From positions 2,800-66,799 of the forward strand of contig JACQXY010000049.1 of NCBI GenBank assembly GCA_016208485.1: a DNA stretch of 64,000 nucleotides. The letters are read 5' to 3'. The translations under genes and the position numbers were made by a program. The DNA is from Acidobacteriota bacterium (lineage in GTDB: Bacteria; Actinomycetota; AC-67). Within the stretch, counting starts at the first letter, position 1. The number at the start of each line of letters is the position of its first letter. Positions 3,691-43,220 of the stretch are shown piece after piece. Below the pieces are notes generated by a model. It did not search any database, had not been told where the DNA came from, and saw only the letters and a list, made by a program, of their open reading frames with translations.

Positions 3691-3695
3691 CGGGC

Positions 3696-4556: not shown

Positions 4557-4961
4557 TCACCCCGGTGTCGGTGGGTCGGTCCCACGCGCGCCGCTCGTCG
4601 TGTCCACACTGGCAGGATCCGGTTCACCGCCGTGTCCCAATCCCTCGCCAGGGCCACCGTCTCGGCATGCCCGCCACAGCCATCTCCCGAGCAGGACGAA
4701 ACCAGCGCCGGGTATCGCCAACAGCCACAAGTCGCGGGTCCGGTACCCGGCGCGAATGGCGGCCACCTGGGCTCGTCTTATCCAGAACCCGAACATCGCG
4801 AGGGCCAGGATGAGTCCCTCCCATCGAAGGGGCCCCGTCAGTTTGCCCAAGAACACGCGATAGCCCAGGCCTGCCGCAAATGATATTCCCGTCCAGAAAC
4901 CCAGGAACTGTACGCCCCAACAGATCCCGAACGGCGGTGCGAGCCTGCCCCTTGTCACTTC
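4557..4961 (-). CDS. Small membrane protein with 3 predicted TM helices
   Basis: The ORF 4557-5099 overlaps the upstream gene by more than 100 nt if the first Met is used. A GTG at 4961 follows gaggtacgggga (SD-like) and gives MTRGRLAPPFGICWGVQFLGFWTGISFAAGLGY..., which retains all three hydrophobic helices. The overlap with the stop of the upstream gene is then 17 nt. Confidence 0.4.
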   Translation of the reverse strand, partial: EVTRGRLAPPFGICWGVQFLGFWTGISFAAGLGYRVFLGKLTGPLRWEGLILALAMFGFWIRRAQVAAIRAGYRTRDLWLLAIPGAGFVLLGRWLWRACRDGGPGEGLGHGGEPDPASVDTTSGARGTDPPTPG

Positions 4962-4974
4962 CCCGTACCTCAAC

Positions 4975-28579: not shown

Positions 28580-29761
28580 TCAGACGGCGCAGGATCCGGT
28601 CGCGACCGGTTGGGTGCGGCGGCGCGCGCGAGAGAAAGCTCGCTCCAGCTCGGTCTCGGCGAGCGCGTAGGACTCGCTCGAGTTGTCGGCCGCCGCCGCG
28701 AAGACCATCCCCCGAACGCGCCCGGCGGCATCCACGAACGGTCCGCCGGAGTTCCCCTGCCGGACCTTCGCTCGGAGCACGTATATCTCGCGCTGGACGA
28801 GCTTGCGGGAGTAGATGTCGCGGCCGAGGGCGTCGGTGCGCGCGCGCACCCTGGCAGGGGAGATCTTGCGCGGGCCCCCGCCCGGGTAGCCGATCGCGGC
28901 CCCGTCCGTCCCGCGCGCGGCGTGGTCCGGATCGATCCGGAGCGCACCGCCGGGCAGCCGCGCCAGTCGCAGGAGCGCGATGTCCTTCGAAGTGTCCACG
29001 TACACCACGGTCGCCGGGTAGCGGGTCCCGTCGGGCTCGATCACGCGGCTGTCGCGCGTCCCGGCCACCACATGCGCCGCCGTGAAAACCAGCCGGTCCC
29101 CGACCGGGAAGCCGCTCCCGTCGACGAGCCCTCCGCACCCCCGGCTCTCGATCTTGTAGGTGAGTCCGGCCGCGGCCATGATCTCGGGGTCGCCGGCGAG
29201 CGACGCCGGCGCCGGCTCCACGCCGGGCGCGAGCGACGGGTTGAGCTGGGCGAAGACCTCCGGGAAACCCGACCGGCTGAGAAACCGGCCGATCTCGGCG
29301 AAGAACGCCGGCGGGTGGGGGGCGACGTGATCGGTCCAGCGAAGGATCGCCGATCCCCGGATCGCGGCGGCCAGCTGCGGCGAGGGGCCGGCCTTGAAGG
29401 TGATCCCGAGGAACCACGCGGACACCAGCGCGAGGAACCCGGCGATGAGCGAGCCGGCGACCATGTCGATGTCGTGCGCGAGGCGCGCGGTGATCTTGGT
29501 TCGGATCCGATGTCCGAGGATCGCAGTCAGTGTCTCCACGAGGAACGCGACGCCGAGGAACACTCCGATCGCGATCCCGGAGCGCATGAGCGGGGACCTC
29601 GGGTTGGCGGCCTCGACGACCCGTGGGGCGATCGACCCGCCGGCGAAGAGCCCGATGACGAAGCCGCCCCATGAGAACGCCTGCATAAGAGCGCCCCGCC
29701 GGTAGCCGCTCGCCAGCCCGGCGACAATGGCCGCCACCACGACCAGATCCACCCAGTTCAC
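28580..29761 (-). CDS. MarP-like membrane serine protease (CvpA-family TM domain fused to a trypsin-like S1 protease)
   Basis: Four N-terminal TM helices. The protease domain has TAAHVV (His), DIALL (Asp) and GNSGGP (Ser). The architecture matches mycobacterial MarP. Confidence 0.8.
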   Translation of the reverse strand: MNWVDLVVVAAIVAGLASGYRRGALMQAFSWGGFVIGLFAGGSIAPRVVEAANPRSPLMRSGIAIGVFLGVAFLVETLTAILGHRIRTKITARLAHDIDMVAGSLIAGFLALVSAWFLGITFKAGPSPQLAAAIRGSAILRWTDHVAPHPPAFFAEIGRFLSRSGFPEVFAQLNPSLAPGVEPAPASLAGDPEIMAAAGLTYKIESRGCGGLVDGSGFPVGDRLVFTAAHVVAGTRDSRVIEPDGTRYPATVVYVDTSKDIALLRLARLPGGALRIDPDHAARGTDGAAIGYPGGGPRKISPARVRARTDALGRDIYSRKLVQREIYVLRAKVRQGNSGGPFVDAAGRVRGMVFAAAADNSSESYALAETELERAFSRARRRTQPVATGSCAV

Positions 29762-29769
29762 GGGCGCCG

Positions 29770-30342
29770 TCCCTCCATCTCAGGCGGAGTGTATCGCCGG
29801 GGCGCCGGGGCGCGCGTCAGGCCGTCGGCTCGGGACGGTCGGGTTGGGCCTCGGGGTGGTGGGAGCGCTTCGGCACCATCACCTTGCGACGAAAGTACAG
29901 GACCTCCTCTGCCGAGAGCGAGCGAGTACACGAGGTTTCCGACGCCCACGTTGCGCTTGAACTGGATCTGCGTCTCCGCGTAGCGCGCGTTCGTGTGGAG
30001 CGGATGATGGTTCACGGTGATCATGCAGAACAGGTGGTCGTCGGCCTCGGTGATCGTCTTGCCGACGGCACGGCGCCCCGTGCGCCAGCTCCACGATGCA
30101 GAGGGCGTAGGTGGTGAGCGGCATGCCGAGCCCGCCGTAGCTCTCCGGGACCATCATCCCGAACAGGCCCATCCCCCCATCCCGGCGACGATCCGCTCGG
30201 GATACTCGCCGGCGTGCTCCATCTCGTTCGCGACCGGGATCACCTCCCGGTCAACGAACTCGCGGACGGCCTCGACGATGGCCTTCTGCTCCTCGGTCAG
30301 CTCGATCAGCGACACCGGTCCCCCTTCCGGTCGCCCCGCCAA
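29770..30342 (-). pseudogene. Mosaic remnant: an acyl-CoA dehydrogenase N-terminal fragment in two frames, joined to a MaoC-like (hotdog) dehydratase fragment
   Basis: Acyl-CoA dehydrogenase part: MAGRPEGGPVSLIELTEEQKAIVEAVREFVDREVIPVANEMEHAGEYPERIV, then a frameshift at a C7 run near 30170-30180, then GLFGMMVPESYGGLGMPLTTYALCIVELA, then degenerate. A third frame reads GKTITEADDHLFCMITVNHHPLHTNARYAETQIQFKRNVGVGNLVYSLALG (MaoC motif), then degenerates. Confidence 0.6.
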
Positions 30343-30343
30343 C

Positions 30344-30766
30344 TCACCTCGACGGCCGCACGTCGAAGCCCAGCGCGCGGAAGTCGGCGTCGAAGCCGAA
30401 GACCTGCCTCACCTTCGCCCTGCGGGCAACCACGGCGCTCGTCGCGTCCGTCAGGCTCAGACGCAGATCGGCGTACCGCTTCATGAGTTCCCAGCCCTCT
30501 TGCTCGAGCCGCGGGTCGATCCAGGTGACCCGAAGCCACCGGCCCGCAACCGCATCGGTCAGGCGCTCTCGAAAGGCCACCGCCGTGCGAAGTCCGGCAT
30601 CGTACCGGAGTCGCGCCGTCGCCTCCGCCACGACATAGTTGGTCGTGAGGAGCCGGGTGCCGTCGGCAAGGCACGATCGCAGGAAGTCGGTGGCCCGCCC
30701 GTGCGCCCCCTCTGAGCGGTTGACGACCGCGATCCAGGCGCCCGTGTCCACGAACGTCGACGTCAC
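30344..30766 (-). CDS. vapC: PIN-domain toxin (VapC)
   Basis: The GTG start overlaps the antitoxin stop (GTGA). The translation is IVTSTFVDTGAWIAVVNRSE...LLTTNYVVAEATARLR...RLSLTDATSAVVARRAKVRQVFGFDADF. Confidence 0.75.
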   Translation of the reverse strand: MTSTFVDTGAWIAVVNRSEGAHGRATDFLRSCLADGTRLLTTNYVVAEATARLRYDAGLRTAVAFRERLTDAVAGRWLRVTWIDPRLEQEGWELMKRYADLRLSLTDATSAVVARRAKVRQVFGFDADFRALGFDVRPSR

Positions 30767-31005
30767 GATCGCTTCGGAGCGCCGTAGAGGTAGTGGTCGT
30801 GCTCCTCGGCCGTGTCTCCCGGACCGCCTTCCCCGATCCCGATCAGACCGAGAAGTGGGTTCTCCGGAGATCGGCGGCCCTTGCTCTCGAGGTACGCGCC
30901 GACCGCTTCCCGGACCAAGGAGGCCGCCGATCGTCCTTGCTCCCGGGCAGCCTCCCGGAGACGCCGGTCGAGGCCCTCCTCGAGATAGACCTGAGTGCGC
31001 TTCAC
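30763..31005 (-). CDS. vapB: Ribbon-helix-helix (CopG-like) antitoxin
   Basis: MKRTQVYLEEGLDRRLREAAREQGRSAASLVREAVGAYL is an RHH fold motif. It is 80 aa and sits immediately upstream of and coupled to the PIN gene. Confidence 0.7.
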   Translation of the reverse strand: MKRTQVYLEEGLDRRLREAAREQGRSAASLVREAVGAYLESKGRRSPENPLLGLIGIGEGGPGDTAEEHDHYLYGAPKRS

Positions 31006-31086
31006 GGAATGGAGTATACACCACTACCGTTCCGATGTATACATCGTCCCACGCCTGCGCCGCCCTCTGCGAGCCGCGGAACCGCT

Positions 31087-31880
31087 CTACCCCGCCAGGT
31101 AGTCGTCCACCGTCTTCGCGCGCGCGAGCCCGGCCGCGCGGCCGCGCGCGGCGAGCACCTCTGCCATCTTGCGGGACGCCTCGTCGATCATCTCGCTCCC
31201 GAACATGACCGCCCCGCGGCGCTCGATCTCGCTCGCGTGCCGGTAGTGCTCGAGGAGCGCCTCGGCCTTGTCGAACTCCTCCTGGCTCGGAGTGAACACC
31301 TCGTTCAGGACCTGGACCTGGTCCGGGTGCAGCGCCCACTTGCCGTCGAAGCCGAGCGCGCGAGCGCGTCTCGCCCCGGTCCGGAACCCGTCCAGGTCCC
31401 GGATCAACAGGTAGGGACCGTCGATGGACTGGAGGCCGCGGGCGCGCGCGGCGATGTTGATGTGGCTGAGCACGTCGTGGAAGTGGTCGAGGCTCTCGTA
31501 GCCGGGCACCGGCGGTCACCGTCGGCAATCCGAGCGAGGCGCTCATGTCGGCCGGCCCGAAGATCAGGTCCTCCATCCGGTCGCTCGCGCCGGCGATCTC
31601 GACGATCTCGATCACGTCCCGGTACGCCCACTTGGTGTAGACGCCGTTGATGCGCACGACCTTGGCCGGCGCGCGGCAGGAGTTCTCCTTCAGCGCCTGG
31701 ACGATGTTCGCGCGCGCCGCGGGGGTATGCTCCTTACCCGAGGCGCTGTTCCCTTCGATCCGCCGGCGCGCCCCGATTGGAACGACACCGTTGCCGAGAG
31801 CGCCGTCCGAGAACCGCGCGGCCCGTGATGCGGCCGAGACGTCGCACGCTCCCCGGATCGGGCTGCGATGGCTCGGCCTC
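31087..31880 (-). pseudogene. Degenerate citE-like gene (HpcH/HpaI aldolase or citryl-CoA lyase beta family)
   Basis: The C-terminal half is intact (...YESLDHFHDVLSHINIAARARGLQSIDGPYL...LGFDGKWALHPDQVQVLNEVFTPS...). A +1 frameshift lies in a GCCC run near 31485. The N-terminal half has ...VVRINGVYTKWAYRDVIEIVEIAG..DRMEDLIFGPADMSASLG but lacks about 50 aa (the LPKAES region). The metal-site region is degenerate (RRIEGNSA where DLEDxV is expected). Confidence 0.55.
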
Positions 31881-33290
31881 GCCCTCTGGGTCCTTCTTCT
31901 CATCGGCATCGACGTCGTCTCGCAGACCCGCGCGTTGCGACAGCGCGAGGTCGCCTACCTCATCGCCACCGCACTGGCGAGCCTCGCCGTCGTCTCGCTG
32001 ATCGCCTTCGCCCGACTCGCCGGCTCCCCGAGGGAACTGAGGAAGCTGCGAGTTCTCGCGGTCCTGCTCCCGAGCGCCTTCGTGCTGCTCGTCCAGCTCA
32101 TCCTGTACTTCCTCGAGGTCGACGACAGGATCACCGAGGTGGGCGAGCACGTCATCGGGGGCGCCATCCTCTCCGTCGGCGCCGTCCCGTTCTCCGTGTA
32201 CGTCTTCCGCGCGTTCACCAGGCTCCGCGACGAGCTGGCGCGCCGGGCTCAGCACCTGGAGACGCTTCACGAGACCTCGATGGCCATGACGAGAGCGCCG
32301 GCGCTGCTGTACGAGCGGATCGCCGACGGCGCGCGCGGGGTCGTGCGCGCCGACTGGGGGGTCGTGTCCCTGGAGCCCACCGGGCGCGGGAGGATCCTCG
32401 CCACGGCTCCGCGCGCAGGGGGTCTCCCTTCGTGGGAAGCGGGCCTCGTGGACGAGGCGGGAAAGGCCGGACGCCCGATCCGCCGATCGCATGGAGAGCG
32501 CTCGTTCCTGGGGACACCCATCCGACTCGGGGAGGGGGTTCTCGGCGTGATGGCGGCCATTCGGGACTCGGGTCCGGGGTTCGTCGTGGAGGACGAGCTG
32601 CTCCTCGGCATGTTCAGCGTCGCCGCCTCCGCCGGGATCGAGAACGCACAGCGCCTGGAGGACACCCACCTGCTCGCGACCGTGGAAGAGCGGGAGCGGG
32701 TCGCCCGGGAGCTGCACGACGACCTCGGACAGCTCCTCGCGTTCCTGACGGCGAAGATCCAGGCCATCGAGGAGCTGATCGCGACCGGTCAGGTGGCCGG
32801 CGCGCGCCGGGAGCTCGCCGGCCTGGAGAACGCGAGCCGCGCGCTCGGCGAGCAGGTCCGCGAGGCGATCCTCGGCCTTCGCGCACGCATCGGTCCGGGC
32901 TCCCCGCTCGGCCCGGCGCTCGAGGAGTACGTCTCGGAGTTCGGGATCCAGGCCGGCCTGTCCACGTCTTTCGAGTCGACCCCGGACGCCGGCCGGAGCC
33001 TTCCCGGCGCCGCCCAGTACCAGCTCATGCGCATCGCACAGGAAGCGCTCACGAACGTGCGCCGCCACGCCCGCGCTCATCGCGTGGCGGTCCGGCTCGC
33101 CGAGTCCGGCGGCCGCGTTGAGCTGTCGGTAACCGACGACGGCGTTGGGTTCGACCCTTCCTCCGCGTCGCGGGGCTTCGGGCTGAAGACCATGGAGGAG
33201 CGAACCGAATCCCTGAACGGGAGCTTCGAGATCCGGTCCTCGCCGGGCGCGGGGACCTGCGTTCTGGTCCGGGCGCCCGTGGCAAGGTAG
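31647..33290 (+). CDS. Sensor histidine kinase (4 TM, GAF, HisKA_3, HATPase_c; NarX/DesK-like). The N-terminus is uncertain
   Basis: TM helices LRWLGLALWVLLLIGIDVV and others. A GAF-like region. HisKA_3 motif ERERVARELHDDLGQ. HATPase motifs N-box ...EALTNVRRHA..., DDGVGF and GFGL. The first ~75 codons overlap the citE remnant in antisense, so the true start may be later. Confidence 0.75.
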   Translation: MMRTTLAGARQEFSFSAWTMFARAAGVCSLPEALFPSIRRRAPIGTTPLPRAPSENRAARDAAETSHAPRIGLRWLGLALWVLLLIGIDVVSQTRALRQREVAYLIATALASLAVVSLIAFARLAGSPRELRKLRVLAVLLPSAFVLLVQLILYFLEVDDRITEVGEHVIGGAILSVGAVPFSVYVFRAFTRLRDELARRAQHLETLHETSMAMTRAPALLYERIADGARGVVRADWGVVSLEPTGRGRILATAPRAGGLPSWEAGLVDEAGKAGRPIRRSHGERSFLGTPIRLGEGVLGVMAAIRDSGPGFVVEDELLLGMFSVAASAGIENAQRLEDTHLLATVEERERVARELHDDLGQLLAFLTAKIQAIEELIATGQVAGARRELAGLENASRALGEQVREAILGLRARIGPGSPLGPALEEYVSEFGIQAGLSTSFESTPDAGRSLPGAAQYQLMRIAQEALTNVRRHARAHRVAVRLAESGGRVELSVTDDGVGFDPSSASRGFGLKTMEERTESLNGSFEIRSSPGAGTCVLVRAPVAR

Positions 33291-33295
33291 GCGCG

Positions 33296-33946
33296 ATGCG
33301 CGTGATCCTCGCCGACGACCACCCTCTGTTCCTTGAGGGACTCGTGAGCCTGCTCGAGGCGCGCGGCATCGAGGTGGTCGGCCGCGCGTCCGATGGCGCG
33401 GAGGCGGTGGAACTGACCCGCCGGCTGCGACCGGACGTCGTGCTCATGGACCTCGGGATGCCCGGGGTCGGCGGGCTCGAGGCGACCAGGCTGATCAGCG
33501 CGGAGATGCCCGACGTCAAGGTGGTCATCCTGACCGTCTCTCAGGCGGACGCCGACCTGTTCGAGGCCATTCGCAGCGGCGCGCACGGCTACCTCGTCAA
33601 GAACACGTCCTCCACGGATTTCTTCGACCTCCTCGACGCACTGGACCGGGGGGAAGCACCTCTGTCGCGCGGCCTCGCGACGAAGATCATTCGCCATCTG
33701 GCAAGCGGCAGCGCGACGGAGGCGACCCAGCTCACTCCGCGGGAGGGGGAGATCCTCCGACTCGTGGCGGAGGGAAAGACCAACCGTGAGGTCGCCGCCG
33801 ACCGGTCCATCTCGGAGGAGACCGTCAAGTTCCACATGACGAACATCCTCCGCAAGCTGCACCTGGAGAACCGCGCGCAGGTGGTCGCCTACGCGCACCG
33901 GCGCGGGCTCGCGGCGCCCGAAGCAGATCCTCCCCAGCACCCGTAG
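33296..33946 (+). CDS. NarL/LuxR-family response regulator
   Basis: Receiver domain MRVILADDHPLFLEGL...VLMDLGMPGVGG.... C-terminal LuxR HTH LTPREGEILRLVAEGKTNREVAADRSISEETVKFHMTNILRKL. Confidence 0.9.
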   Translation: MRVILADDHPLFLEGLVSLLEARGIEVVGRASDGAEAVELTRRLRPDVVLMDLGMPGVGGLEATRLISAEMPDVKVVILTVSQADADLFEAIRSGAHGYLVKNTSSTDFFDLLDALDRGEAPLSRGLATKIIRHLASGSATEATQLTPREGEILRLVAEGKTNREVAADRSISEETVKFHMTNILRKLHLENRAQVVAYAHRRGLAAPEADPPQHP

Positions 33947-34045
33947 CCTCCCCGAAAGGGGAGGGCCCTTCCCCCCGCTGCCGGTGGCCGGAAACGGCGC
34001 CGACGACCCTGTTTCGCCAGCGCGCGGCTCCCTAGGATCCAGGAC

Positions 34046-34987
34046 GTGGAGATGGATACCGGCGTGGGACCGGATGGCGAGGCGGCCGAGGCCACCGGCG
34101 AATCGCGCGTCCCGAGGCGCGGCTTCCTGAGGTCTCTCGTCGCCTGGGGCGCGGGGATCGCGGCGGTGGGAGTCGGGGTCCCGGAGGCGAACGCGCTGCG
34201 GCAGGGGACGCGGGCGGCGGGGACGGCGGCGGCCGCGACCGGCACGCGGCTGCGCCGCTGGGCGATGGTCATCGATCTCCGCCGCTGCGACGGATGCCAG
34301 GCGATCGACGAGCCGCCGCGGTGCACTCAAGCCTGCATCCAGGGGCACCTCGCGCCGGAGCCCATGCAGTGGATCGAGGTGTACGAGGCCCCGCTGCCGG
34401 GAGGGGGCACCCAGTTCATCCCCTCCCCCTGCATGCAGTGCCAGAACCCGCCGTGCGTGAACGTCTGCCCGGTCGGAGCCACCTTCTCGACCCCGGAAGG
34501 GATCGTCCTCGTCGACCAGATGCGGTGCATCGGGTGCCGGATCTGCATGGAGGCCTGCCCGTACGACCGGCGCTTCTTCAACTGGGGTTCCCCTCCCATC
34601 CCGCGCGAGGCGGCGCTCACCGAGTACTCCGCCGAGCACGAGGTGCCGGCGATACGCGGCACGGTGATGAAGTGCGAGTTCTGCCCCGACCTGGCGCGCG
34701 GGGGACGGCGACCCTACTGCTCTCAGGCCTGCCCGAACGGCTGCATCTACTACGGGGACCTGGAGGAGGATCTCGCTACGAACGGCCGGGAGGTCGTGAG
34801 GCTCTCGCGCTTCCTCTCGAAGAACACGGCCTTTCGCCTGAAGGAGGAGCTGGGCACCGACCCGAGAGTCTTCTACATCCCGGGATACGGGCAGGACGTC
34901 GGGCGCAGCCCGTATCGCCGGGGACTCAAGCGGATCCTCTGGCCGTGGCGGCGCGTCGCGGCGGGAAGCGAGAGGTGGGGGCGATGA
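34046..34987 (+). CDS. Tat-exported 4x[4Fe-4S] ferredoxin-type subunit (PsrB/HybA/ActB-C-terminal-like)
   Basis: Tat signal RRGFLRSLVAWGAGIAAVG. Four Cys clusters: CDGCQAIDEPPRC, CMQCQNPPCVNVCP, CIGCRICMEACP and CEFCPD...CSQACP. Confidence 0.85.
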   Translation: MEMDTGVGPDGEAAEATGESRVPRRGFLRSLVAWGAGIAAVGVGVPEANALRQGTRAAGTAAAATGTRLRRWAMVIDLRRCDGCQAIDEPPRCTQACIQGHLAPEPMQWIEVYEAPLPGGGTQFIPSPCMQCQNPPCVNVCPVGATFSTPEGIVLVDQMRCIGCRICMEACPYDRRFFNWGSPPIPREAALTEYSAEHEVPAIRGTVMKCEFCPDLARGGRRPYCSQACPNGCIYYGDLEEDLATNGREVVRLSRFLSKNTAFRLKEELGTDPRVFYIPGYGQDVGRSPYRRGLKRILWPWRRVAAGSERWGR

Positions 34988-36369
34988 GCGCCCGGCGCGG
35001 CGATCCGCCGGCCGCGTGGCGCGCGCGCCTGGAGCGGCGCGTCCTCGCCCCGCTCGCCCGCACCGGGTGGCGCTACCGCCTCTGGATCCTCTTCCTCGTC
35101 GCCGTCGTCGCCTGGGCCGTCTTCGCCTACTCCCGCCAGCTCGGGCGGGGCCTGATCGTGACCGGGATGCGAGACCGCATCTCCTGGGGCCTCTACATCG
35201 CGAGCTTCGTCTTCTTCATCGGCATCAGCCACGCGGGGACCCTCCTGTCGGCGATCCTGAGGGTGAGCCGAGCTACGTGGCAGATGTCGATAACACGCAT
35301 GGCGGAGTTCATCACCGTCGTCGCGCTCCTCGTCGCCGGCCTCTTCCCCTTCATCGACCTCGGGCGCCCCGACCGGGTCTTCAACCTCGTTCGCTTCGGG
35401 CGGTGGCAGTCACCGCTCCTCTGGGACATCTTCGCGATCACCACGTACCTCACCGGGAGCCTCATCTACCTGCTCATCCCGCTGGTGCCCGACTTCGCGC
35501 TCTGCCGCGACCGGCTGGGGCAGGAGGCGCCGCGCTGGAAGAGGCGGTTCTTCCGGGCGGCGGCCGTCGGCTGGGAAGGAAGCCCCGGGCAGCAGTGGCG
35601 CCTCCACCGCGCGATGAAGATCATGGCCGTCCTCATCATCCCCATCGCGGTGTCGGTTCACACGGTCGTGTCCTGGATCTTCGCGATGACGCTGCGGGTG
35701 CCCTTCAACAGCACGGTGTTCGGCGCCTACTTCGTCGCCGGCGCCATCTACTCGGGGATCGCCGCCATCATTCTGCTCATGGCCGTGCTGCGTCGCGTCC
35801 TCCACCTCGAGGAGTACATCACCCGCACGCAGTTCGTGAACCTCGGCTACCTGCTCGCGGCGCTCTCGGGGGTGATGATGTACTTCAACCTCTCGGAGTA
35901 CGTCACGAGCGGCTACAAGATGGAGGCGGGCGTCGCCTTCCAGTTCCGCCAGCTCATGACGGGCTCGTTCGCGCCCCTCTTCTGGCTCTACGCCTTCGGC
36001 GGCCTCCTCGCGCCGGCCCTGGTGATCCTGTTCCGGCGGACCCGGACCATCCCGGGGATCATCACCGCCTCGGTCCTGGTCGTGGTGACCATGTGGATCG
36101 AGCGCTACTTCCTCGTGGTCAGCGGCTTCCGGGTCCCGCTCATGCCCTACGCCCCGGCGAGCTACGCCCCAACCTGGATCGAGTGGTCGGTCCTTGCCGG
36201 AGCCTTCGCGCTCTTCGCGCTCATCGTGTCGGTCGTCGTCAAGCTCCTGCCGGTGGTCTCGGTGTGGGAGGTGACCGAGCAGGAGGAGTGGGAACGGCCG
36301 GCGGAGGTCGTCCAGGAGCGAGGCTGGGCACCGGCCGCCGTCAGTCCGTCCTCTGGAGGTGAGCCGTGA
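34984..36369 (+). CDS. NrfD/PsrC-family quinol-interacting integral membrane subunit
   Basis: The ATG overlaps the upstream stop (ATGA). About 10 TM helices. The N-terminal pattern ...WGLYIASFVFFIGISHAGTLLSAI... is typical of the NrfD family. The track ORF 34294-36369 is in the same frame but has a spurious N-terminus inside the FeS gene. Confidence 0.85.
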   Translation: MSARRGDPPAAWRARLERRVLAPLARTGWRYRLWILFLVAVVAWAVFAYSRQLGRGLIVTGMRDRISWGLYIASFVFFIGISHAGTLLSAILRVSRATWQMSITRMAEFITVVALLVAGLFPFIDLGRPDRVFNLVRFGRWQSPLLWDIFAITTYLTGSLIYLLIPLVPDFALCRDRLGQEAPRWKRRFFRAAAVGWEGSPGQQWRLHRAMKIMAVLIIPIAVSVHTVVSWIFAMTLRVPFNSTVFGAYFVAGAIYSGIAAIILLMAVLRRVLHLEEYITRTQFVNLGYLLAALSGVMMYFNLSEYVTSGYKMEAGVAFQFRQLMTGSFAPLFWLYAFGGLLAPALVILFRRTRTIPGIITASVLVVVTMWIERYFLVVSGFRVPLMPYAPASYAPTWIEWSVLAGAFALFALIVSVVVKLLPVVSVWEVTEQEEWERPAEVVQERGWAPAAVSPSSGGEP

Positions 36370-37073
36370 GACGTCGTCGCCTTGCCTTGGTCGCCGCGGC
36401 CGTCGCGGCCTCCGCGCTCGCTCCGGCCGCCGGGGCCGGATCGGCCGCGCCCACCACGCTGCGCATCGAATCCCCGGCGGCGGCGATCCTCGGCGAGATC
36501 GTCGTCGTGCGCGCGCGGCTCGCCGGCGCCGACGGCACCCCCATCGCGCGCGCGGCGATCGTCTTCGCGACCGAGGCGGAGTTCCTGAACGAGACCGGCG
36601 AGGCGGAAGTCGCCGAGGCCGTGACCGGCCCCGACGGCGCCGCCCAGGCCGAGTGGCAACCGCGCACCTCCGGCCCCGTCTCGGTGATCGCGACCTTCTC
36701 CGGGGACCCGACGCACGCGCCGTCGCGAGCCACCGCGTCCGTCACCGTGTCGGGGGCCCGCCAGCTCTGCTCGGAGCTCCAGGGCGTACAGCTCCTCGGG
36801 ATCGACGCGGGCCCCGGCCTCAGCCCCCGCTCCGGACGCACGGGCTCCTGGCCCCGGCTCAACGGGTGGCCCATTGGTGTCATCCTGATGATCGTCTGGT
36901 CGCTCTTCGCCTACGTCGTGCTCCTCCTTCTGCGGATCTCGAAGGAGCCCCCGTGGGCGGGGGCCGCCGCCGAGGGACAGGCATCCCTTCCTGCCGGCGT
37001 GCTCGAGCGCTCCGGTGCGGCCGCCGCGGGCGTGGCGGCCGGCGGGAGCGAGGAACCGGGGGCGAGTCCGTGA
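36366..37073 (+). CDS. Signal-peptide protein with an Ig-like (Big/CarboxypepD_reg-like) domain and a C-terminal TM anchor
   Basis: The GTG overlaps the NrfD stop. The N-terminus is MRRRRLALVAAAVAASALAPAAGAGSA. The segment ILGEIVVVRARLAGADGTPIARAAIVFATEAEF...GPDGAAQAEWQP is present. The TM helix is WPIGVILMIVWSLFAYVVLLLL. Confidence 0.55.
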   Translation: MRRRRLALVAAAVAASALAPAAGAGSAAPTTLRIESPAAAILGEIVVVRARLAGADGTPIARAAIVFATEAEFLNETGEAEVAEAVTGPDGAAQAEWQPRTSGPVSVIATFSGDPTHAPSRATASVTVSGARQLCSELQGVQLLGIDAGPGLSPRSGRTGSWPRLNGWPIGVILMIVWSLFAYVVLLLLRISKEPPWAGAAAEGQASLPAGVLERSGAAAAGVAAGGSEEPGASP

Positions 37074-37504
37074 GCCGTCGCCGCCCCTCGTTCCCGACGC
37101 TCGCCGCGGTCGCCGTCGCCTCCCTCGGAAGCCTGCTCATCGCCATCGGGGCGCGCAGCCCGCACACGCACACCAACCTCGAGCCCGGCTTCCACGTCTC
37201 CTACGTCCGCACGGCCCCGAGCTTCGTCGGCCCCCCCGAGCATGTCATGGCGATGACCGGGGGTCAGATCCCCTCCGGGGGGGGCGAGGCCGCGCGCGGC
37301 CGGGCGCTCTTCTACGGGATGATGTGCGCGTCGTGCCACGGACTCGGCGCTCAAGGCGGGCTGGTAGGCCCCGGGCTGGCCGGGCTCGGCGCTGAAGCCG
37401 TGATGGACGCGGTCGAAGAGGGACCGGGAGGAATGCCGCGATTCCACTTGACCCACGAGGAGATCCGAGCGATCGTGGCTTTCCTCAAAGCCGCCGAGGA
37501 CTAG
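37070..37504 (+). CDS. Membrane-anchored monoheme c-type cytochrome
   Basis: The GTG overlaps the upstream TGA. The N-terminal TM helix is PTLAAVAVASLGSLLIAIGA. The heme motif CASCH sits in the context GRALFYGMMCASCHGLGAQG, and there is a distal Met (GGMPRF). Confidence 0.75.
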   Translation: MSRRRPSFPTLAAVAVASLGSLLIAIGARSPHTHTNLEPGFHVSYVRTAPSFVGPPEHVMAMTGGQIPSGGGEAARGRALFYGMMCASCHGLGAQGGLVGPGLAGLGAEAVMDAVEEGPGGMPRFHLTHEEIRAIVAFLKAAED

Positions 37505-37612
37505 ACCCTCGGCCGCGCTCTTGGACTCCCGGTCGCAGTCCAGATAGGATCGGCAGGTCGTCGAGACCCTAAGGAGGTCGTCGTGCTCGATAGGAAAGCC
37601 CGGACCCGGACT

Positions 37613-38593
37613 ATGGCGCTCGTGGGGGCCCTGTCCGTTTCTCTTCTTCTGTCCGCATGCGCCAAGAGCACGAAGCCAGGCGCGCAGGACGCGACCACCC
37701 CGACCGCGACGGTATCGAGCCCGCCGGCCGCGCCGGTGGCGGTCGCCGCCGACGAGTACATCAAGAACCGCAAGGACATCGTCGACGCGGCGGACTGGGA
37801 CGCCGCCCAGCACCTCGCGATCGAGTGGGGCGAGGCGGGCAACACGATGTACTTCAGGCCGAAGGACATGACGCTCGAGGCCGGCAAGCCCTACGTGTTC
37901 GAGGTCAACAACACCGGCAAGAAGAAGCACGAGCTCGTCGCCGAGGCCTTCTTCCGCTCCTCAGCGATCCGCAAGTTCGAGGACGACATCAGCGAGGTCA
38001 AGGTGCGCCTCGCGACCGAGTTCGAAGTCTTCGCCGGCAAGAAGGTCGAGCTGTTCATCATCCCGGTCATGCCGGGCGCCTACGAGATGGTCTGCGGGAT
38101 CGCCGGCCACCGCGAGGCCGGGATGGAAGGCACGATCACGGTCACCGGTCAGGTCCCGTCGGCCCCGGCTCCCGAGATCGCCAAGCTCGCCGACAGCGGC
38201 TGGGTCCAGGACCCCAAGGCGATCATCGACGCCGCGGACTGGGACGCTGCGGAGAAGATCCGGATCGAGGCCGGTGAGACGGGCGACAAGATGTGGTTCA
38301 AGCCCTCCAACATCGATCTGAAGGCGAACAAGCCCTACATCATCACCCTCGTCAATGTCGGCAAGAAGAAGCACGAGTTCGTGGCCGACGAGTTCACCCC
38401 GACCGTCGCCTTCCGAAAGGCGGAGGACGCCTCGGGGGAGTTCAAGGGTCTCTCCCTCGACGAGGTCGAGGTGTTCGCCGGCAAGGAGATCGAGGTCTTC
38501 TTGATCCCGACGAAGGCCGGTTCGTACCCCCTCATATGCGAGATCGCCGGCCACCAAGAGGCCGGGATGGTGGGGACGATCACGGTCGCCTAG
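37613..38593 (+). CDS. Lipoprotein with two tandem type-1 (blue) copper cupredoxin domains; auracyanin/plastocyanin-like
   Basis: Lipobox LLLSAC. Each domain has the His, Cys-x4-His-x4-Met ligand set (GKKKHELV...MVCGIAGHREAGMEGTITV and GKKKHEFV...LICEIAGHQEAGMVGTITV). The two halves are clearly an internal duplication. Confidence 0.8.
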   Translation: MALVGALSVSLLLSACAKSTKPGAQDATTPTATVSSPPAAPVAVAADEYIKNRKDIVDAADWDAAQHLAIEWGEAGNTMYFRPKDMTLEAGKPYVFEVNNTGKKKHELVAEAFFRSSAIRKFEDDISEVKVRLATEFEVFAGKKVELFIIPVMPGAYEMVCGIAGHREAGMEGTITVTGQVPSAPAPEIAKLADSGWVQDPKAIIDAADWDAAEKIRIEAGETGDKMWFKPSNIDLKANKPYIITLVNVGKKKHEFVADEFTPTVAFRKAEDASGEFKGLSLDEVEVFAGKEIEVFLIPTKAGSYPLICEIAGHQEAGMVGTITVA

Positions 38594-38815
38594 CTCCGGC
38601 ACTACGCGGCAGCGCCCCCGGACGACCGGGGGCGCTCGCGTCTCCGGGGGCAGGTGCCCGCCTCTCAACACACGCGGTGGCCCGGCCGCTCCCCCTGGGC
38701 CGGGCCCCGCGCGGTCACGCGTCCTTCGTCCCCCCGCTCACTGGATGTCGTTAAGCTACCTTAACATCGGCGGGGACGCAAGGGGGTCGTCTCAAAGAGG
38801 TTGGCCCGGCCCCGC

Positions 38816-40750
38816 TCAGCGCGCGGCGCGGATCTCGTCGAGCGAACCGGGGTTCTCGAGCGAGGACAGGTCCCCGGGATCCTCGCCGAGCGCGACCGCG
38901 CGAATGGTGCGCCGCAGGATCTTGGCCGAGCGGGTTCTCGGCAGCGCGCCGACGAACCTCACCGCGTCGGGCCGGAAGGCCTTGCCCAGATCGCGCTCGA
39001 CCAGCGCGCGCAGCTCGGCGCGCAGGGCATCGGTCGGCTCGGTCCCCGGCCGCAAAACCACGAAGCACCAAACCTTCTCGCCCTTCACCTCGTCGGGCAC
39101 GCCGACCACCGCTGACTCGGCCACAGCCGGATGAGAGACAAGGATCGACTCGACCTCGGCGGGGCCGAGTCGCTTGCCGGCGATCTTGAGCGTGTCGTCC
39201 GAGCGGCCGTGGAGGTACCAGTAGCCATCGGCGTCGCGCGAGGCCCAGTCCCCATGCACCCAGACGTCCGGCCACCTCGACCAGTAGGTCTCGATGTAGC
39301 GCTCCGGGTCGCGCCAGATGCCGCGCGTCATCCCCGGCCAGGGCTTGGTGCAAACCAGCTCCCCCACCTGCCCCGGCGGGAGCGGCTTGCCGGACTGGTC
39401 GTAGACGTCGATCGCCATCCCGAGCGCCGGCCCGCCGAGCGTGCACGGGCGGAGCTTCACGAGCGGTGTCGGCGACAGGAAGCAGGCGCCGACCTCGGTC
39501 CCGCCGGACAGGTTGATCACCGGGCAACGCCGGCCGCCGACGACCTCGAAGAACCAGCGCCACGGCTCGGGGTTCCACGGCTCCCCCGTCGAGCCGAGGA
39601 TCCGCAAGCTCGACAGGTCGTGCTTGCGGACGTTCTCCTCGCCGCGGGGGATGAGCGCGCGGATGAGGGTCGGCGAGGCACCGAGGATCGTCGCGCGGTG
39701 CCGCTCGATCACCTCCCACAGCCGGTCGGACGCCGGGTAGTCGGGCGCCCCCTCGTAGAAGAGCACGCACCCGCCGGCGGCGTTCGCGCCGATCAGCTCC
39801 CACGGGCCCATGATCCAGCCCATGTCGGTGACCCAGAAGAGCGTGTCGTCTGGACGCAGATCCACCTGGTAGGCGACTTCTTCGGCGATCTTGACGAGGA
39901 AGCCGGCCTGCACGTGCACCGCGCCCTTCGGGCGCCCGGTCGTGCCGGAGGTGTAGGCGATGAGGAGCGGGTGCTCCGAGTCGAGCGGAGGCGCCGGGCG
40001 CTCCTCCGGCTGCCCGGCCACGAGGTCCGCCCAGTCGAGGTCGCGGCCCTCCGTCCACGGGTCCTCCCGCCCGAGTCGGCGGTGAACGATCACGTGGCGC
40101 ACCGTAGGGCTCGCCGCGACGGCCTCATCGGCCGCCTCCTTCATCGGTACCACGGAGCCGCGCCGGAGGAACCCGTCGGCGGTGATCAGGACCTTCGCCT
40201 CGGCGTCCTGAAGGCGCGACGCGACCGCCCCGCCGGCGAACCCCGAGAAGATCGGGAGCCACACCGCGCCGATCTTCGAGCACGCGTAGATCGCGATCGC
40301 GTTCTCGGGGATCATCGGCATGAAGATCCCGACCGCGTCGCCCGGCCCGATCCCCAGGCCGCACAACCCGCCGGCGAGCCGGTCGACCTCACGGCGCAGC
40401 TCGGCGTAGCTGAGCGTGCGCGTCGCGCCGTCCTCGCCCTCCCAGCGGATCGCGACGCGGCCGGGCGTGCGCGCGGCGTGGCGGTCGACGCAGTTGTGTG
40501 TGAGGTTGATGGTCCCGCCGGTGAACCACTTCGCCCAGGGAATCCCGCCCGAGGCGTCCAGCACCTTCGAATAGGGCATGAAGAACTCGATCCCGAGGTC
40601 GCGCACGACCGCGTCCCAGAACCACTCCGGGTCCTCTTGAGAGCGGCGCACCAGGTCCCAGTAGTCGGAGATCCCGTGCGCGCGCATGAGGCGCGCGACG
40701 TTCGCTCGCTCGAGCTGCTCGGGTCCGGGCGTCCAGGCGAACTCGGTCAC
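38816..40750 (-). CDS. AMP-forming acetyl-CoA synthetase-family acyl-CoA ligase
   Basis: 644 aa. AMP-binding signature YTSGTTGRPKG, ...WVTDMGWIMGPW..., ...GDWASRDADGYWYLHGRSDDTLKIAGKRLGPAEVE... The N-terminal ...DPEWFWDAV... is typical of Acs. Confidence 0.9.
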   Translation of the reverse strand: MTEFAWTPGPEQLERANVARLMRAHGISDYWDLVRRSQEDPEWFWDAVVRDLGIEFFMPYSKVLDASGGIPWAKWFTGGTINLTHNCVDRHAARTPGRVAIRWEGEDGATRTLSYAELRREVDRLAGGLCGLGIGPGDAVGIFMPMIPENAIAIYACSKIGAVWLPIFSGFAGGAVASRLQDAEAKVLITADGFLRRGSVVPMKEAADEAVAASPTVRHVIVHRRLGREDPWTEGRDLDWADLVAGQPEERPAPPLDSEHPLLIAYTSGTTGRPKGAVHVQAGFLVKIAEEVAYQVDLRPDDTLFWVTDMGWIMGPWELIGANAAGGCVLFYEGAPDYPASDRLWEVIERHRATILGASPTLIRALIPRGEENVRKHDLSSLRILGSTGEPWNPEPWRWFFEVVGGRRCPVINLSGGTEVGACFLSPTPLVKLRPCTLGGPALGMAIDVYDQSGKPLPPGQVGELVCTKPWPGMTRGIWRDPERYIETYWSRWPDVWVHGDWASRDADGYWYLHGRSDDTLKIAGKRLGPAEVESILVSHPAVAESAVVGVPDEVKGEKVWCFVVLRPGTEPTDALRAELRALVERDLGKAFRPDAVRFVGALPRTRSAKILRRTIRAVALGEDPGDLSSLENPGSLDEIRAAR

Positions 40751-40877
40751 GGGTCCCTCCTTCGGTTGCGCGCGGAGCGTACGGGACGGGCGCGGACGGG
40801 GTCAACGCGCGGGTGCCGGCGGCTTCGACGGAGCATCGGCCTTGCCGAACTGTTCGCGGATCCGCTAACATCGCCTC

Positions 40878-41186
40878 GTGGGGATCGCGTCCCAGCTCCT
40901 CGTTGAGGCCCGGCGCGTGGCCGGTCTCACGCAGGCGGCGCTCGCGCGGAGAGCGGGCATGCCCCGTTCGGTCTTGAACGCCTACGAGCGCGGGAATCGC
41001 GAACCGGGAGCCGGCGCGCTCGCCGGCATCCTTGCGGCGGCCGGCTTCGAGCTTCGCCTCGCTCCGCTGATCGATCGCGAGCGCAACGCTCGAGTGCTCG
41101 CGGAGGTCCTCGACCTGGCGGAGCGGCTGCCGTGGCGGCCTCGCCGCACGCTCGCCTTCCCGCCGTTTCGACGCAGGGCCCAATGA
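40878..41186 (+). CDS. XRE-family HTH protein
   Basis: VAGLTQAALARRAGMPRSVLNAYERGNREP is a Cro/C1-type HTH. 102 aa. Translationally coupled to the downstream nucleotidyltransferase gene. Confidence 0.65.
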   Translation: MGIASQLLVEARRVAGLTQAALARRAGMPRSVLNAYERGNREPGAGALAGILAAAGFELRLAPLIDRERNARVLAEVLDLAERLPWRPRRTLAFPPFRRRAQ

Positions 41187-41719
41187 GCGTCCTGGCGAAG
41201 CAGCTGCTCGCCGTGCACGCCGCGCTCGACCGGGCAGGGCTCCCCCATGCCTTCGGCGGCGCGATCGCTCTCGCCTACTGGACCCAGGAGCCGCGCGGGA
41301 CCAGGGACCTCGACGTGAACGTCTTCGTCGCTCCCGAGCGAGCGGACGAGGCGCTCGACGCGTTGCCGCGCGGCGTCGCGGTCCGGCCCGCAGACCGGGC
41401 CACCGCGCGCCGCGATGGGCAGGCGCGCGTGATGTGGGGCGACACCCCCGTGGACCTCTTCTTCGACACCCACGCGTTTCATCGTGAAGCCGCCGACGGC
41501 GTTGTGGGCGTGCCGTTCGAGGGCGCGACGATCCCGGTGCTCGGCGCCGAGGCGCTCATCGTGTTCAAGGCCATGTTCAACCGGACGCGGGACTGGGCGG
41601 ACATCGAGGCGATGCTCGACGCCGGCTCGGTGGACGGCCACCGCGCGCTCGAGCGCCTGCGGTCCTTGCTGGGGGAATCCGACCCGGCGGTCGCGCGGCT
41701 CACCGCGCTCGTTCGTTAG
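41183..41719 (+). CDS. Nucleotidyltransferase-fold protein (pol-beta superfamily)
   Basis: The ATG overlaps the upstream TGA. GGAIALAYWTQEPRGTRDLDVNVFV is a G[SG]-x9-13-D-x-D nucleotidyltransferase motif. 178 aa. Confidence 0.6.
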   Translation: MSVLAKQLLAVHAALDRAGLPHAFGGAIALAYWTQEPRGTRDLDVNVFVAPERADEALDALPRGVAVRPADRATARRDGQARVMWGDTPVDLFFDTHAFHREAADGVVGVPFEGATIPVLGAEALIVFKAMFNRTRDWADIEAMLDAGSVDGHRALERLRSLLGESDPAVARLTALVR

Positions 41720-41804
41720 GGACCAACCGGCTCAACCCCTCGTTTCGCGCGCGGCGCCCTCGCGTGCCTAGCATTCAGGCATCGCGCGACGAATGGAGGT
41801 CCGC

Positions 41805-43220
41805 ATGGCCGAGTTCCGGATCGAGAAGGACTCGATGGGTGAGGTGCGTGTGCCGGCCGCGGCGTACTGGGGCGCGCAGTCCCAGCGCGCGGTCGACAAT
41901 TTCCCGGTCAGCGGGATCCGATTCCCCAGGCGCTTCATCTGGGCGCTCGGGGTCATCAAGTGGGCGGCGGCGCAGGTGAACGAGGATCTCGGGAACGTGG
42001 ACGGTCGGCGCGCCGAGGCGATCCGCAAGGCCGCCGACGAGGTGATCGACGGCGCGCTCGACGACCAGTTCGTGCTCGACATATTCCAGACGGGATCGGG
42101 CACCTCGACCAACATGAACGCGAACGAGGTGATCGCGAACCGGGCCTCGGAGCTGCTCGGCGCGGCGCGCGGCTCCCGCGAGGTCCACCCGAACGACCAC
42201 GTGAACACCGGCCAGTCCTCGAACGACGCGATCCCGACCGCGATCCACCTCGCGGCCATAGCCGGCATCCGGGAGGATCTGCTGCCGGCGATGGCGCGGC
42301 TCGCCGGCTCGCTCCGCTCGAAGGCAGCCGAGTTCGCCGAGGTCTTGAAGGTGGGACGCACCCACCTGATGGACGCCACGCCGATCATGCTCGGCCAGGA
42401 GCTGGGCGGCTACGCGACCCAGGTCGAGAAGGGCGCGGCGCGGCTGCTCGACGCCTGCGGACGGCTCGGCGAGCTGGCGCTCGGCGGGACGGCGGTCGGG
42501 ACGGGCCTGAACGCCGACCCCCAGTTCGCGCCGAGAGCGATCGCGCTCATCCGCGAGCGGACCGGCCTGGACGTGCGGGAGGCCGAGGATCACTTCGAGG
42601 CTCAGGGGTCGAAGGACGCCTGCGTCGAGACGTCCGGGGCCCTTCGCACTCTCGCCGCGTCGCTCCTCAAGATCGCGAACGACGTGCGGTGGATGGGCTC
42701 CGGGCCGAGGGCCGGGATCGGAGAGCTGCGCCTGCCCGAGCTGCAGCCCGGGTCCTCGATCATGCCGGGCAAGGTGAACCCGGTGATCCCGGAGGTCGTG
42801 ACGCAGGTGGCCGTTCAGGTGATCGGAAACGACCAGGCGGTGACGATCGCCGGCGCGATGGGCAACTTCGAACTGAACGTGTTCATGCCCCTCATCGCAC
42901 GCAACCTGATCGAGTCGATCGCGCTGCTCACCTCCGCGTGCCGGCTGTTCGCCGAGAAGTGCATCGACGGCCTCGGGGCGGACGTGGACCGCGCGCGCTC
43001 TCTCGTCGAGCAGTCCTTCCCGATCGTGACCGCGCTCGTGCCGAAGATCGGCTACGACAAGGCTGCGGAGATCTCGAAGATCGCGTACAAGACCGGGCGC
43101 GCCGTCCGCGACGTGGCGCTCGAGCTGTCCGGCCTCTCGGCCGGCGAGCTGGACGAAGCGCTCGACCTCGCGAAGATGACGCGGGGAGGGATCGTCGCGC
43201 CGGGCCTCGGCGGGGGCTGA
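41805..43220 (+). CDS. fumC: Class II fumarate hydratase (fumarase C / aspartase family)
   Basis: EKDSMGEVRVPAAAYWGAQSQRA, QTGSGTSTNMNANEVIANRASELLG and the SS-loop GSSIMPGKVNP are FumC-like rather than AspA-like. The VIPEVVTQ segment resembles aspartase, so the family is certain but the subtype is moderately so. Confidence 0.75.
   Translation: MAEFRIEKDSMGEVRVPAAAYWGAQSQRAVDNFPVSGIRFPRRFIWALGVIKWAAAQVNEDLGNVDGRRAEAIRKAADEVIDGALDDQFVLDIFQTGSGTSTNMNANEVIANRASELLGAARGSREVHPNDHVNTGQSSNDAIPTAIHLAAIAGIREDLLPAMARLAGSLRSKAAEFAEVLKVGRTHLMDATPIMLGQELGGYATQVEKGAARLLDACGRLGELALGGTAVGTGLNADPQFAPRAIALIRERTGLDVREAEDHFEAQGSKDACVETSGALRTLAASLLKIANDVRWMGSGPRAGIGELRLPELQPGSSIMPGKVNPVIPEVVTQVAVQVIGNDQAVTIAGAMGNFELNVFMPLIARNLIESIALLTSACRLFAEKCIDGLGADVDRARSLVEQSFPIVTALVPKIGYDKAAEISKIAYKTGRAVRDVALELSGLSAGELDEALDLAKMTRGGIVAPGLGGG

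Follow-up and report, generated by a model that had tools for sequence, protein, structure and literature searches.

In the 64,000-nucleotide stretch analyzed here (contig JACQXY010000049.1, positions 2,800 to 66,799; hereafter the window, in whose numbering positions are given), a cluster of seven consecutive plus-strand genes at 31647-38593 encodes a sensor histidine kinase, a NarL-type response regulator, an iron-sulfur (FeS) protein, an NrfD-family membrane protein, an immunoglobulin (Ig)-like protein, a cytochrome c, and a cupredoxin lipoprotein. The five structural genes rather probably encode a small membrane complex with its electron carrier, which would act as an inducible menaquinol:periplasmic-carrier oxidoreductase. 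This reading is based on the genes present and on their homologues and synteny, on cofactor motifs, predicted topology, and gene fusions, and on the finding of no catalytic subunit. A preliminary description of this DNA had listed the same gene set after the kinase and regulator and had read it as a stripped-down version of alternative complex III (ACIII); every feature that it listed was present.

The NrfD subunit, previously described as an NrfD/PsrC-type quinol-binding membrane protein, scored 121.9 bits with the Pfam NrfD model (PF03916, cutoff 25.8), and both the quinone-site Ser and the mid-membrane Arg were found. Among Protein Data Bank (PDB) structures it matched ACIII alone: four ActC chains gave 191-209 bits with residues 27-431 aligned (best match 8k9e_C, E 1.4e-60), ActF gave approximately 25 bits, and PsrC was not matched at E ≤ 0.01. 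The identity to ActC from Rhodothermus marinus was 33% across 398 aligned residues. Pairwise phmmer comparison with E. coli HybB and E. coli NrfD gave no match at E ≤ 10. In NCBIfam, only DsrP (142.3 bits, cutoff 350) and QrcD (57.6 bits, cutoff 570) were matched; for calibration, the DsrP model gave 58 bits with a true ActC and 92 bits with a more distant homologue from a Frankiaceae bin. ActC, ActF, and DsrP form one major group in the dendrogram of the NrfD family (PMC8076601), and by its sequence the NrfD subunit fits this group, although it reaches no named family's threshold. The placement of the NrfD subunit draws on this calibration of hidden Markov model scores together with structure and pairwise matches.

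A homologue search with the NrfD subunit yielded 5,946 proteins at E ≤ 1e-10, the closest 120 of which were used for alignments and counts. These 120 share 65-74% identity, and the named ones among them stem from Chloroflexi/Chloroflexota or Anaerolineae metagenome bins. Invariant in these best 120 of 5,946 homologues were the quinone-site residues S143 (S164 in ActC) and D148 (D169 in ActC), D125, and the mid-membrane "gate" arginine R374 (R395 in ActC); the roles of the quinone-site and gate residues were taken from a review (PMC8076601).

The FeS protein (313 amino acids) carries the twin-arginine motif PRRGFLRS (RRGFL) and 16 Cys in four ferredoxin-type motifs, in line with the earlier description of a protein exported by twin-arginine translocation (Tat) with four [4Fe-4S] clusters. 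All 16 Cys were kept in 63/63 aligned relatives, which predicts four [4Fe-4S] clusters, unlike in ActB, whose set includes a [3Fe-4S] cluster. The Pfam match was Fer4_11 (67.8 bits). All NCBIfam scores fell below the respective cutoffs, in the order DsrO (166.6 bits), QrcC (125), TtrB (121), NrfC (115), and HybA (72.8, cutoff 263), with ArrB also matched and ranked well above HybA. Among solved structures PsrB was the best match (99.8 bits), with ArrB, too, ahead of ActB, which was matched in its C-terminal part (71.6 bits); the pairwise phmmer score against E. coli HybA was 54 bits. Of the two proteins in the earlier label "PsrB/HybA-like", PsrB is the best match among solved structures, and HybA is the weakest of the FeS matches.

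The Ig-like protein and the cytochrome c had both been described as membrane anchored, and both anchors were found. In the AlphaFold2 model of the Ig-like protein, a beta-sandwich (residues 30-129, predicted local distance difference test score (pLDDT) approximately 97) precedes a confident transmembrane helix (residues 165-193), and this C-terminal helix, with the motif "SGWPIA..L.IVWSLY", is strongly conserved in an alignment of 26 homologues. The same alignment contains no conserved Cys, His, or Met. Foldseek retrieved only generic Ig, macroglobulin, and CARDB domains, and the Pfam matches to Big_3_5 and Big_1 were both below threshold. A cofactor role was rejected because of the missing conserved Cys/His/Met and the generic structural matches; as judged from sequence, the protein is most likely a cofactor-less structural subunit whose conserved helix would pack against NrfD. 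The family is small and fast-evolving, with 72 representatives at E ≤ 1e-10 among 1.84 billion. Codon 135 (36768-36770) encodes Cys (TGC) in the window and in MBI4729544.1; the residue is Tyr in at least 90% of the family and in a protein that comes from a Logan read assembly and is identical at all other positions. The Cys at this nearly invariant position reflects strain variation or else an error in assembly.

The cytochrome c has an N-terminal transmembrane helix and a single CASCH motif, the one CxxCH in the entire cluster, and matched Pfam Cytochrome_CBB3 with 47.4 bits. Across nine orthologues the CxxCH, a GP.GMP motif, and a membrane-proximal P(Y/H)THxNL were invariant. The last of these opens an invariant P(Y/H)THxNL...YxRT...VG segment between the transmembrane helix and the heme domain, which may be a docking segment for FeS or NrfD. 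The best PDB match was the second heme domain of actinobacterial QcrC, and ActE was absent from the 26 PDB matches at E ≤ 0.1.

The genes for FeS, NrfD, Ig-like protein, and cytochrome c were found together in 10/10 distinct related loci (numbered L002-L014, from metagenome bins labeled Chloroflexota or Acidobacteriota), in the order FeS-NrfD-Ig-cytochrome c or NrfD-FeS-Ig-cytochrome c; the contig end falls inside the FeS gene in L006 and inside the Ig gene in L008. One genome that carries the core is GCA_040960095.1. Beside the core, no molybdopterin subunit was found in those related loci for whose called genes Pfam annotation is available. In the window, neighboring genes were scanned with Pfam as 29 other main open reading frames (ORFs), a selection made by coding signal from among all ORFs, and this set contained no molybdopterin, hydrogenase, oxidase, NirK, NosZ, or cytochrome-maturation domain and not a single CxxCH. 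The proposed absence of a molybdopterin catalytic subunit thus holds for the main ORFs of the window and for the annotated relatives.

These results bear on a rival reading of such genes, namely that they encode the membrane anchor of a Psr/Ttr/Phs-type molybdoenzyme or of hydrogenase-2 (HybAB) whose catalytic subunit was lost or is encoded elsewhere. Public databases name the NrfD gene "polysulfide reductase NrfD" and the FeS gene "4Fe-4S protein", which favors this reading, as does the top rank of PsrB among the solved structures matched by the FeS subunit. Against it stand, besides the lack of molybdopterin and hydrogenase genes both among the main ORFs of the window and beside the core in the annotated related loci, the strong match of the NrfD subunit to ActC with no detectable match to PsrC, E. 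coli NrfD, or HybB, and the conservation of dedicated cytochrome c and Ig-like subunits where a catalytic subunit would be. A Psr/Ttr-type reductase missing its catalytic subunit was rejected on the lack of both an adjoining molybdopterin gene and a PsrC match, and HybAB on the lack of a HybB match and of hydrogenase genes and on the weak HybA match; the pair is not HybAB. Neither of the two outcomes that the preliminary description had named as refuting its reading, an adjacent molybdopterin subunit and a placement within HybAB, was observed. We consider an anchor function of either type highly improbable.

The fifth structural gene encodes a lipoprotein (lipobox LSAC, lipid-modified Cys C26) that scored above cutoff with Pfam Cupredoxin_1 (64.3 bits) and Copper-bind (51.5 bits). 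Its two halves are 52% identical over 129 residues without gaps, and each has a complete set of copper ligands with C-x4-H-x4-M spacing (H116/C171/H176/M181 and H264/C319/H324/M329), in full accord with the earlier proposal of tandem type-1 copper domains arising from an internal duplication. The copper ligands and C26 were kept in at least 90-95% of 120 homologues, and the AlphaFold2 model had a pLDDT of 90.7. Foldseek ranked NirK and two-domain laccases at the top, with TM-scores of only 0.25-0.32; these ranks are due only to the sharing of two cupredoxin domains. His116, His176, His264, and His324 are the sole His among the conserved columns. As the type-1 ligands are thus the only conserved His, the protein is read as a type-1 copper protein with tandem domains rather than as an oxidase, and a two-domain multicopper oxidase or NirK was rejected on the low TM-scores and the lack of conserved type-2 and type-3 ligands. 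The lipoprotein is predicted from its sequence to bind copper at two type-1 sites, with no type-2 or type-3 site evident. In a Frankiaceae metagenome bin, the gene immediately upstream of a more distant FeS/NrfD pair (48% and 36% identity) belongs to the same cupredoxin family.

In the related loci, the gene after that for cytochrome c encodes, wherever it is readable, a predicted extracytoplasmic redox protein of varying type. The tandem type-1 cupredoxin of the window is replaced by a different tandem cupredoxin-like lipoprotein in three loci (L003 12744-13829, L009 12678-13703, L012 12498-13511), by a dihaem cytochrome c lipoprotein in L007/L013, by a 706-amino-acid multi-domain cytochrome c with further cytochromes in L014, and by lipoproteins with a C-terminal CxxCH and weak similarity to cytochrome c' in L002 and L004. 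The cupredoxin-like lipoproteins of L003, L009, and L012 have a Tat-type signal and an unusually long gap between the candidate Cys and His ligands (approximately 13 residues). As judged from this gene order, the conserved unit is the four-gene core, and the cupredoxin is one of several interchangeable carriers. The inclusion of the cupredoxin in the module, as originally described, therefore applies to the window, where it follows the core, but not to the relatives, where other carriers fill its position. In L009, COX2 and COX1 genes lie approximately 6 kb downstream of the core. In L006, the region upstream of the kinase and core (1878-5605) encodes a cytochrome c lipoprotein, a lipoprotein with a PCYCGC motif, a small cupredoxin with a CuA motif, a polytopic NapH-like FeS protein, and a CuA-domain/cytochrome c fusion, with no COX1 gene; this cluster may be a partner system of the core.

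The cupredoxin also raises the alternative of a copper-handling or envelope-stress system, in which a cupredoxin acting like CopI in the detoxification of periplasmic copper would be served by FeS, NrfD, and cytochrome c supplying or removing electrons, and the kinase would sense stress or copper. The C-terminal copper-site region indeed matched CopI models of NCBIfam, albeit under the cutoffs (53.6 and 37.2 bits), L006 carries CuA-type cupredoxins and the PCYCGC lipoprotein upstream, and the tight linkage to a two-component system fits a stress response. In most relatives, however, a c-type cytochrome is encoded where the window has the cupredoxin, and the conserved function is therefore not specific to copper; the two copper sites each have the complete His-Cys-His-Met set that is usual in type-1 centers for electron transfer, and genes for CopA, CusF, or multicopper oxidases were not found among the scanned main ORFs of the window. 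We therefore regard a copper or stress function as quite improbable.

Gene fusions were frequent among the best 120 NrfD homologues, with NrfD-FeS fusions in 62/120 and NrfD-Ig fusions in 5/120. In 58/62 cases the NrfD-FeS linker has a twin-arginine motif and, after it, a hydrophobic helix, and the NrfD-Ig linkers have a signal-like helix, which fits a cytoplasmic C-terminus of NrfD, with the FeS and Ig-like subunits outside the membrane. Examples of NrfD-FeS fusions are P0006, P0017, P0048, P0080, and L013 10001-12301. With ten transmembrane segments and an internal twin-arginine motif, their sequences make them candidates for a further family of polytopic proteins co-inserted by Sec and Tat; NrfD is not mentioned in the 2017 eLife study on proteins of this kind.

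In the menaquinol:carrier oxidoreductase that we propose, NrfD would bind and oxidize quinol close to the outer side of the membrane (D125, S143, D148). Electrons would then pass along the four [4Fe-4S] clusters of the Tat-exported FeS subunit sitting on NrfD, on to the heme of the membrane-anchored cytochrome c, and from there to the lipid-anchored double blue-copper protein, which would hand them to a terminal enzyme encoded elsewhere (for example a heme-copper oxidase, NirK, or NosZ). The route from quinol via FeS/NrfD and cytochrome c to the cupredoxin given in the preliminary description is thereby supported, while we infer its direction, the order of carriers, the terminal partner, the coupling to protons, and the regulatory signal. 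Electron transfer from menaquinol to heme c or type-1 copper is downhill. The direction from quinol to carrier was assigned because the potentials of heme c and type-1 copper are usually high relative to menaquinone. By analogy, coupling to proton movement is possible because the mid-membrane Arg374 is conserved, as proposed for ActC.

The same complex could also run in reverse as a carrier:menaquinone reductase, in which the cupredoxin and cytochromes would collect electrons from an extracytoplasmic donor (a periplasmic dehydrogenase, humics, Fe(II), or Cu(I)) and pass them to the quinone pool, either in a Qrc-like manner or uphill at the expense of the proton-motive force. QrcCD and DsrOP are FeS/NrfD pairs homologous to this one, and menaquinone is the substrate that Qrc reduces (PMC8076601; PMC6303296). 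The Asp at the position of ActC H139 is shared with DsrP and QrcD, the NrfD subunit scores higher than true ActC on the DsrP model (142 versus 58 bits), and the chain of cytochrome c domains in the 706-amino-acid protein of one relative could reach out through the wall. The scores with the QrcD and DsrP models are, however, far under the cutoffs, and no donor-oxidizing enzyme is encoded nearby. Moreover, type-1 copper and class I heme c are normally far above the potential of menaquinone, so that quinone reduction would be strongly uphill and would need the proton-motive force. We regard the reverse reaction as unlikely.

Several observations weigh against the proposed quinol:carrier oxidoreductase. 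The direction is not fixed by the sequence, as Qrc, with a homologous FeS/NrfD pair, runs towards quinone. A terminal acceptor enzyme was not found among the main ORFs of the 64-kb window. The [3Fe-4S] cluster that in ACIII serves beside the quinol site has no counterpart in the FeS subunit, the His of ActC in transmembrane helix 2 (H139) is Asp (D125) here, as in DsrP and QrcD, and the equivalent of ActC D253 is Ile or Val. The role of the Ig-like subunit is a guess. Finally, the cupredoxin family of the window also occurs alone in other genomes and is therefore not dedicated to the module.

Compared with ACIII (ActABCDEFG; 6F0K, 6BTM, 6LOD, 8K9E), the module has in common a full-length ActC homologue that retains the equivalents of Ser164, Asp169, and Arg395, an FeS subunit on the outer membrane face, a monoheme cytochrome c at the exit, and an identical proposed overall reaction from quinol to a periplasmic carrier. 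The ACIII of Chloroflexus hands electrons to the blue-copper protein auracyanin. Unlike ACIII, the module has neither the pentaheme ActA nor the molybdopterin-like ActB1 domain, and no second NrfD-family ORF (ActF) was found in the cluster or among the other main ORFs of the window. An ActD- or ActG-type gene was not evident in the cluster. The module has four [4Fe-4S] clusters where ACIII has a [3Fe-4S] cluster next to the quinol site, its cytochrome is transmembrane-anchored and matches QcrC best, with ActE absent from its PDB matches at E ≤ 0.1, and the Ig-like subunit is found in the module only. With ActA, ActB1, ActF, and the [3Fe-4S] cluster absent, the complex would work like ACIII but is not an ACIII. 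The designation "ACIII-like" is accordingly appropriate for the NrfD subunit (209 bits with ActC, full length) but not for the PsrB/DsrO-like FeS subunit or the overall composition.

DsrJOP of the DsrMKJOP complex resembles the module in its combination of an anchored cytochrome c, a Tat-exported FeS protein, and an NrfD-family protein with Asp at the quinone position in transmembrane helix 2, and DsrO and DsrP are the best NCBIfam matches of FeS and NrfD. The scores nevertheless remain below the equivalog cutoffs (166.6 versus 200 for DsrO, 142.3 versus 350 for DsrP), and DsrM, DsrK, dsrAB, or a sulfur-metabolism context were not found in the cluster or the scanned ORFs of the window. DsrJ carries three hemes, whereas the cytochrome of the module has one. 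NrfBCD from E. coli and QrcABCD likewise comprise a quinone-reactive FeS/NrfD pair wired to periplasmic c-type cytochromes without a catalytic molybdoenzyme, but their partners are multiheme proteins, Qrc runs towards quinone, and the QrcD score is low (57.6 versus 570); similarity of the NrfD subunit to E. coli NrfD was undetectable (phmmer E > 10). NapGH and NosGH are alike in function as small membrane quinol-oxidizing modules feeding periplasmic cytochromes, by which NosGH supplies the copper enzyme NosZ (PMC3475470). NapH and NosH are, however, four-transmembrane proteins with cytoplasmic FeS clusters and not of the NrfD type; NosGH as an NrfCD-like homologue was rejected because the literature describes it as NapGH-like, which makes it a functional analogue only.

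Single-domain blue copper carriers (auracyanin, plastocyanin, sulfocyanin, halocyanin) share with the lipoprotein of the window the cupredoxin fold, the His-Cys-His-Met ligands, and a membrane tether, and we take the C-x4-H-x4-M spacing to be the same as in auracyanin. Unlike these, the lipoprotein has two tandem domains in one chain, each with an extra N-terminal helix, and no solved auracyanin matched it at E ≤ 0.01.

The features of the locus are listed in Table 1. The window has approximately 70% G+C, and all seven genes are backed by the GC content of third codon positions. The four core genes had been described as consecutive and translationally coupled; indeed, 4-bp overlaps are found at all three junctions (FeS/NrfD, NrfD/Ig, and Ig/cytochrome c), which suggests co-translation. 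The cupredoxin gene starts 78 nt past the cytochrome c gene and has an AAGGAGG ribosome-binding site of its own. The hairpin after it, 18 nt past its stop codon, is likely the operon terminator, and the first gene beyond the operon, an acs-like gene at 38816-40795, is convergent. Between the regulator and FeS genes, a gap of 99 nt contains the other hairpin, which probably marks the boundary between the regulator unit and the structural operon; as it has no T-tail, we only infer its role as terminator. A scan of 29500-41500 with Rfam gave no riboswitch or RNA element at E ≤ 0.1, and scans for sigma-70 and terminator consensus sequences were uninformative in this 70% GC DNA.

Table 1. Features of the gene cluster and its flanking hairpins (window coordinates).
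Feature	Position	Strand	Characteristics
Histidine kinase	31647..33290	+	Four transmembrane helices, then GAF, HisKA_3, HATPase_c
NarL/GerE-type response regulator	33296..33946	+	Response_reg and GerE
GC-rich hairpin, 7-bp stem, GAAA loop	33947..33964	+	Inverted repeat directly 3' of regulator stop
Tat-exported FeS subunit, four [4Fe-4S] motifs	34046..34987 (likelier ATG 34052)	+	Fer4_11, 16 Cys, twin-arginine motif
ActC-like NrfD-family quinol-binding membrane subunit (predicted), 461 amino acids, approximately 10 transmembrane segments, no cofactor	34984..36369	+	Pfam NrfD
Ig-like extracytoplasmic subunit, 235 amino acids	36366..37073	+	Signal peptide, beta-sandwich, C-terminal transmembrane helix
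Monoheme class I cytochrome c, 144 amino acids	37070..37504	+	N-terminal transmembrane anchor, one CASCH
Lipoprotein with two tandem type-1 copper (cupredoxin) domains (predicted), 336 amino acids	37583..38593	+	Cupredoxin_1, Copper-bind
Perfect 11-bp GC hairpin	38611..38636	+	Inverted repeat past cupredoxin stop

The kinase scored 29.4 bits with GAF, 45.6 with HisKA_3, and 54.8 with HATPase_c, with its transmembrane segments within residues 73-187. The regulator scored 94 bits with Response_reg and 71.5 with GerE, and its best NCBIfam match was NarL (158 bits, under the cutoff of 250). A two-component system adjoins the four-gene core in most related loci, with sensors of different type (GAF, PAS, dCache-HAMP, or HisKA with an OmpR-type regulator). 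The suggestion of regulated control made in the preliminary description thus gains from the recurrence of a two-component system beside the core, while the sensor domains vary between loci. Expression of the module is probably conditional and set by the adjoining kinase and NarL-type regulator.

At the 5' edge of the cluster, a citE/HpcH-like gene on the minus strand (31087 to approximately 31950) is divided between two reading frames by a frameshift and is probably a pseudogene. The first approximately 100 kinase codons overlap its 5' part on the opposite strand, and the true start of the kinase is therefore uncertain. The split gene hints that the cluster was inserted at this place. Further upstream on the minus strand (approximately 30700-31050), a short VapB-like ORF of the ribbon-helix-helix type and, after it, the beginning of a PIN-like ORF point to a toxin-antitoxin pair.

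The 29 other main ORFs are of housekeeping or miscellaneous type, including ThiI, a CvpA-trypsin fusion, the acetyl-CoA-synthetase-like protein, fumarase, MetH, and PBP1. The CvpA-trypsin fusion (28580-29773) presumably resembles mycobacterial MarP. An AbiEii-like nucleotidyltransferase is encoded at 41168-41719. Among the large ORFs, that at 43583-47047 (1154 amino acids) gave a weak BNR_2 match only and that at 4975-7593 (872 amino acids) no family match. The contig is labeled "Acidobacteria bacterium" at NCBI. The named close relatives of the fumarase (41793-43220; 69-78% identity) are all from Actinomycetota metagenome bins; in contrast, the respiratory core (34046-37504) is closest to bins labeled Chloroflexota (65-74%). 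The label given to the bin at NCBI is probably incorrect, and the module may have arrived by lateral transfer.

Full-text literature searches yielded no account of the four-gene core or of a cupredoxin joined to an NrfD-type module, which is weak evidence of novelty given the limited corpus, and the NrfD-family review makes no mention of copper proteins (PMC8076601). As read from sequence, the core would represent a known principle in a previously undescribed form, namely a quinol module of the FeS/NrfD type connected to a carrier in the periplasm. The module is widespread in uncultured soil and groundwater bacteria and is routinely mislabeled "polysulfide reductase". Metabolic surveys that go by the labels "polysulfide reductase NrfD" and "4Fe-4S protein" may take these genes as a sign of sulfur respiration, whereas the evidence points instead to a link from quinol to a carrier in an oxygen or nitrogen-oxide respiratory chain.

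Tentatively, and with slightly less than even confidence, we propose that the core defines a distinct, widespread, and unnamed class of quinol:carrier oxidoreductases ("mini-ACIII"). It would be present in many uncultured Chloroflexota and some Actinomycetota and would serve as an inducible, possibly proton-translocating substitute for bc1 or ACIII with plug-in carriers matched to the terminal enzymes. The NrfD-FeS fusions with their internal twin-arginine motif matter in addition for membrane-protein biogenesis, as a candidate family inserted by Sec and Tat. If the proposal is true, the module would be a third and much smaller "complex III" solution beside bc1 and ACIII and a minimal model of the origin of ACIII-type complexes from FeS/NrfD modules, and it would help to explain the wiring of electron transport in abundant uncultured soil and groundwater bacteria.

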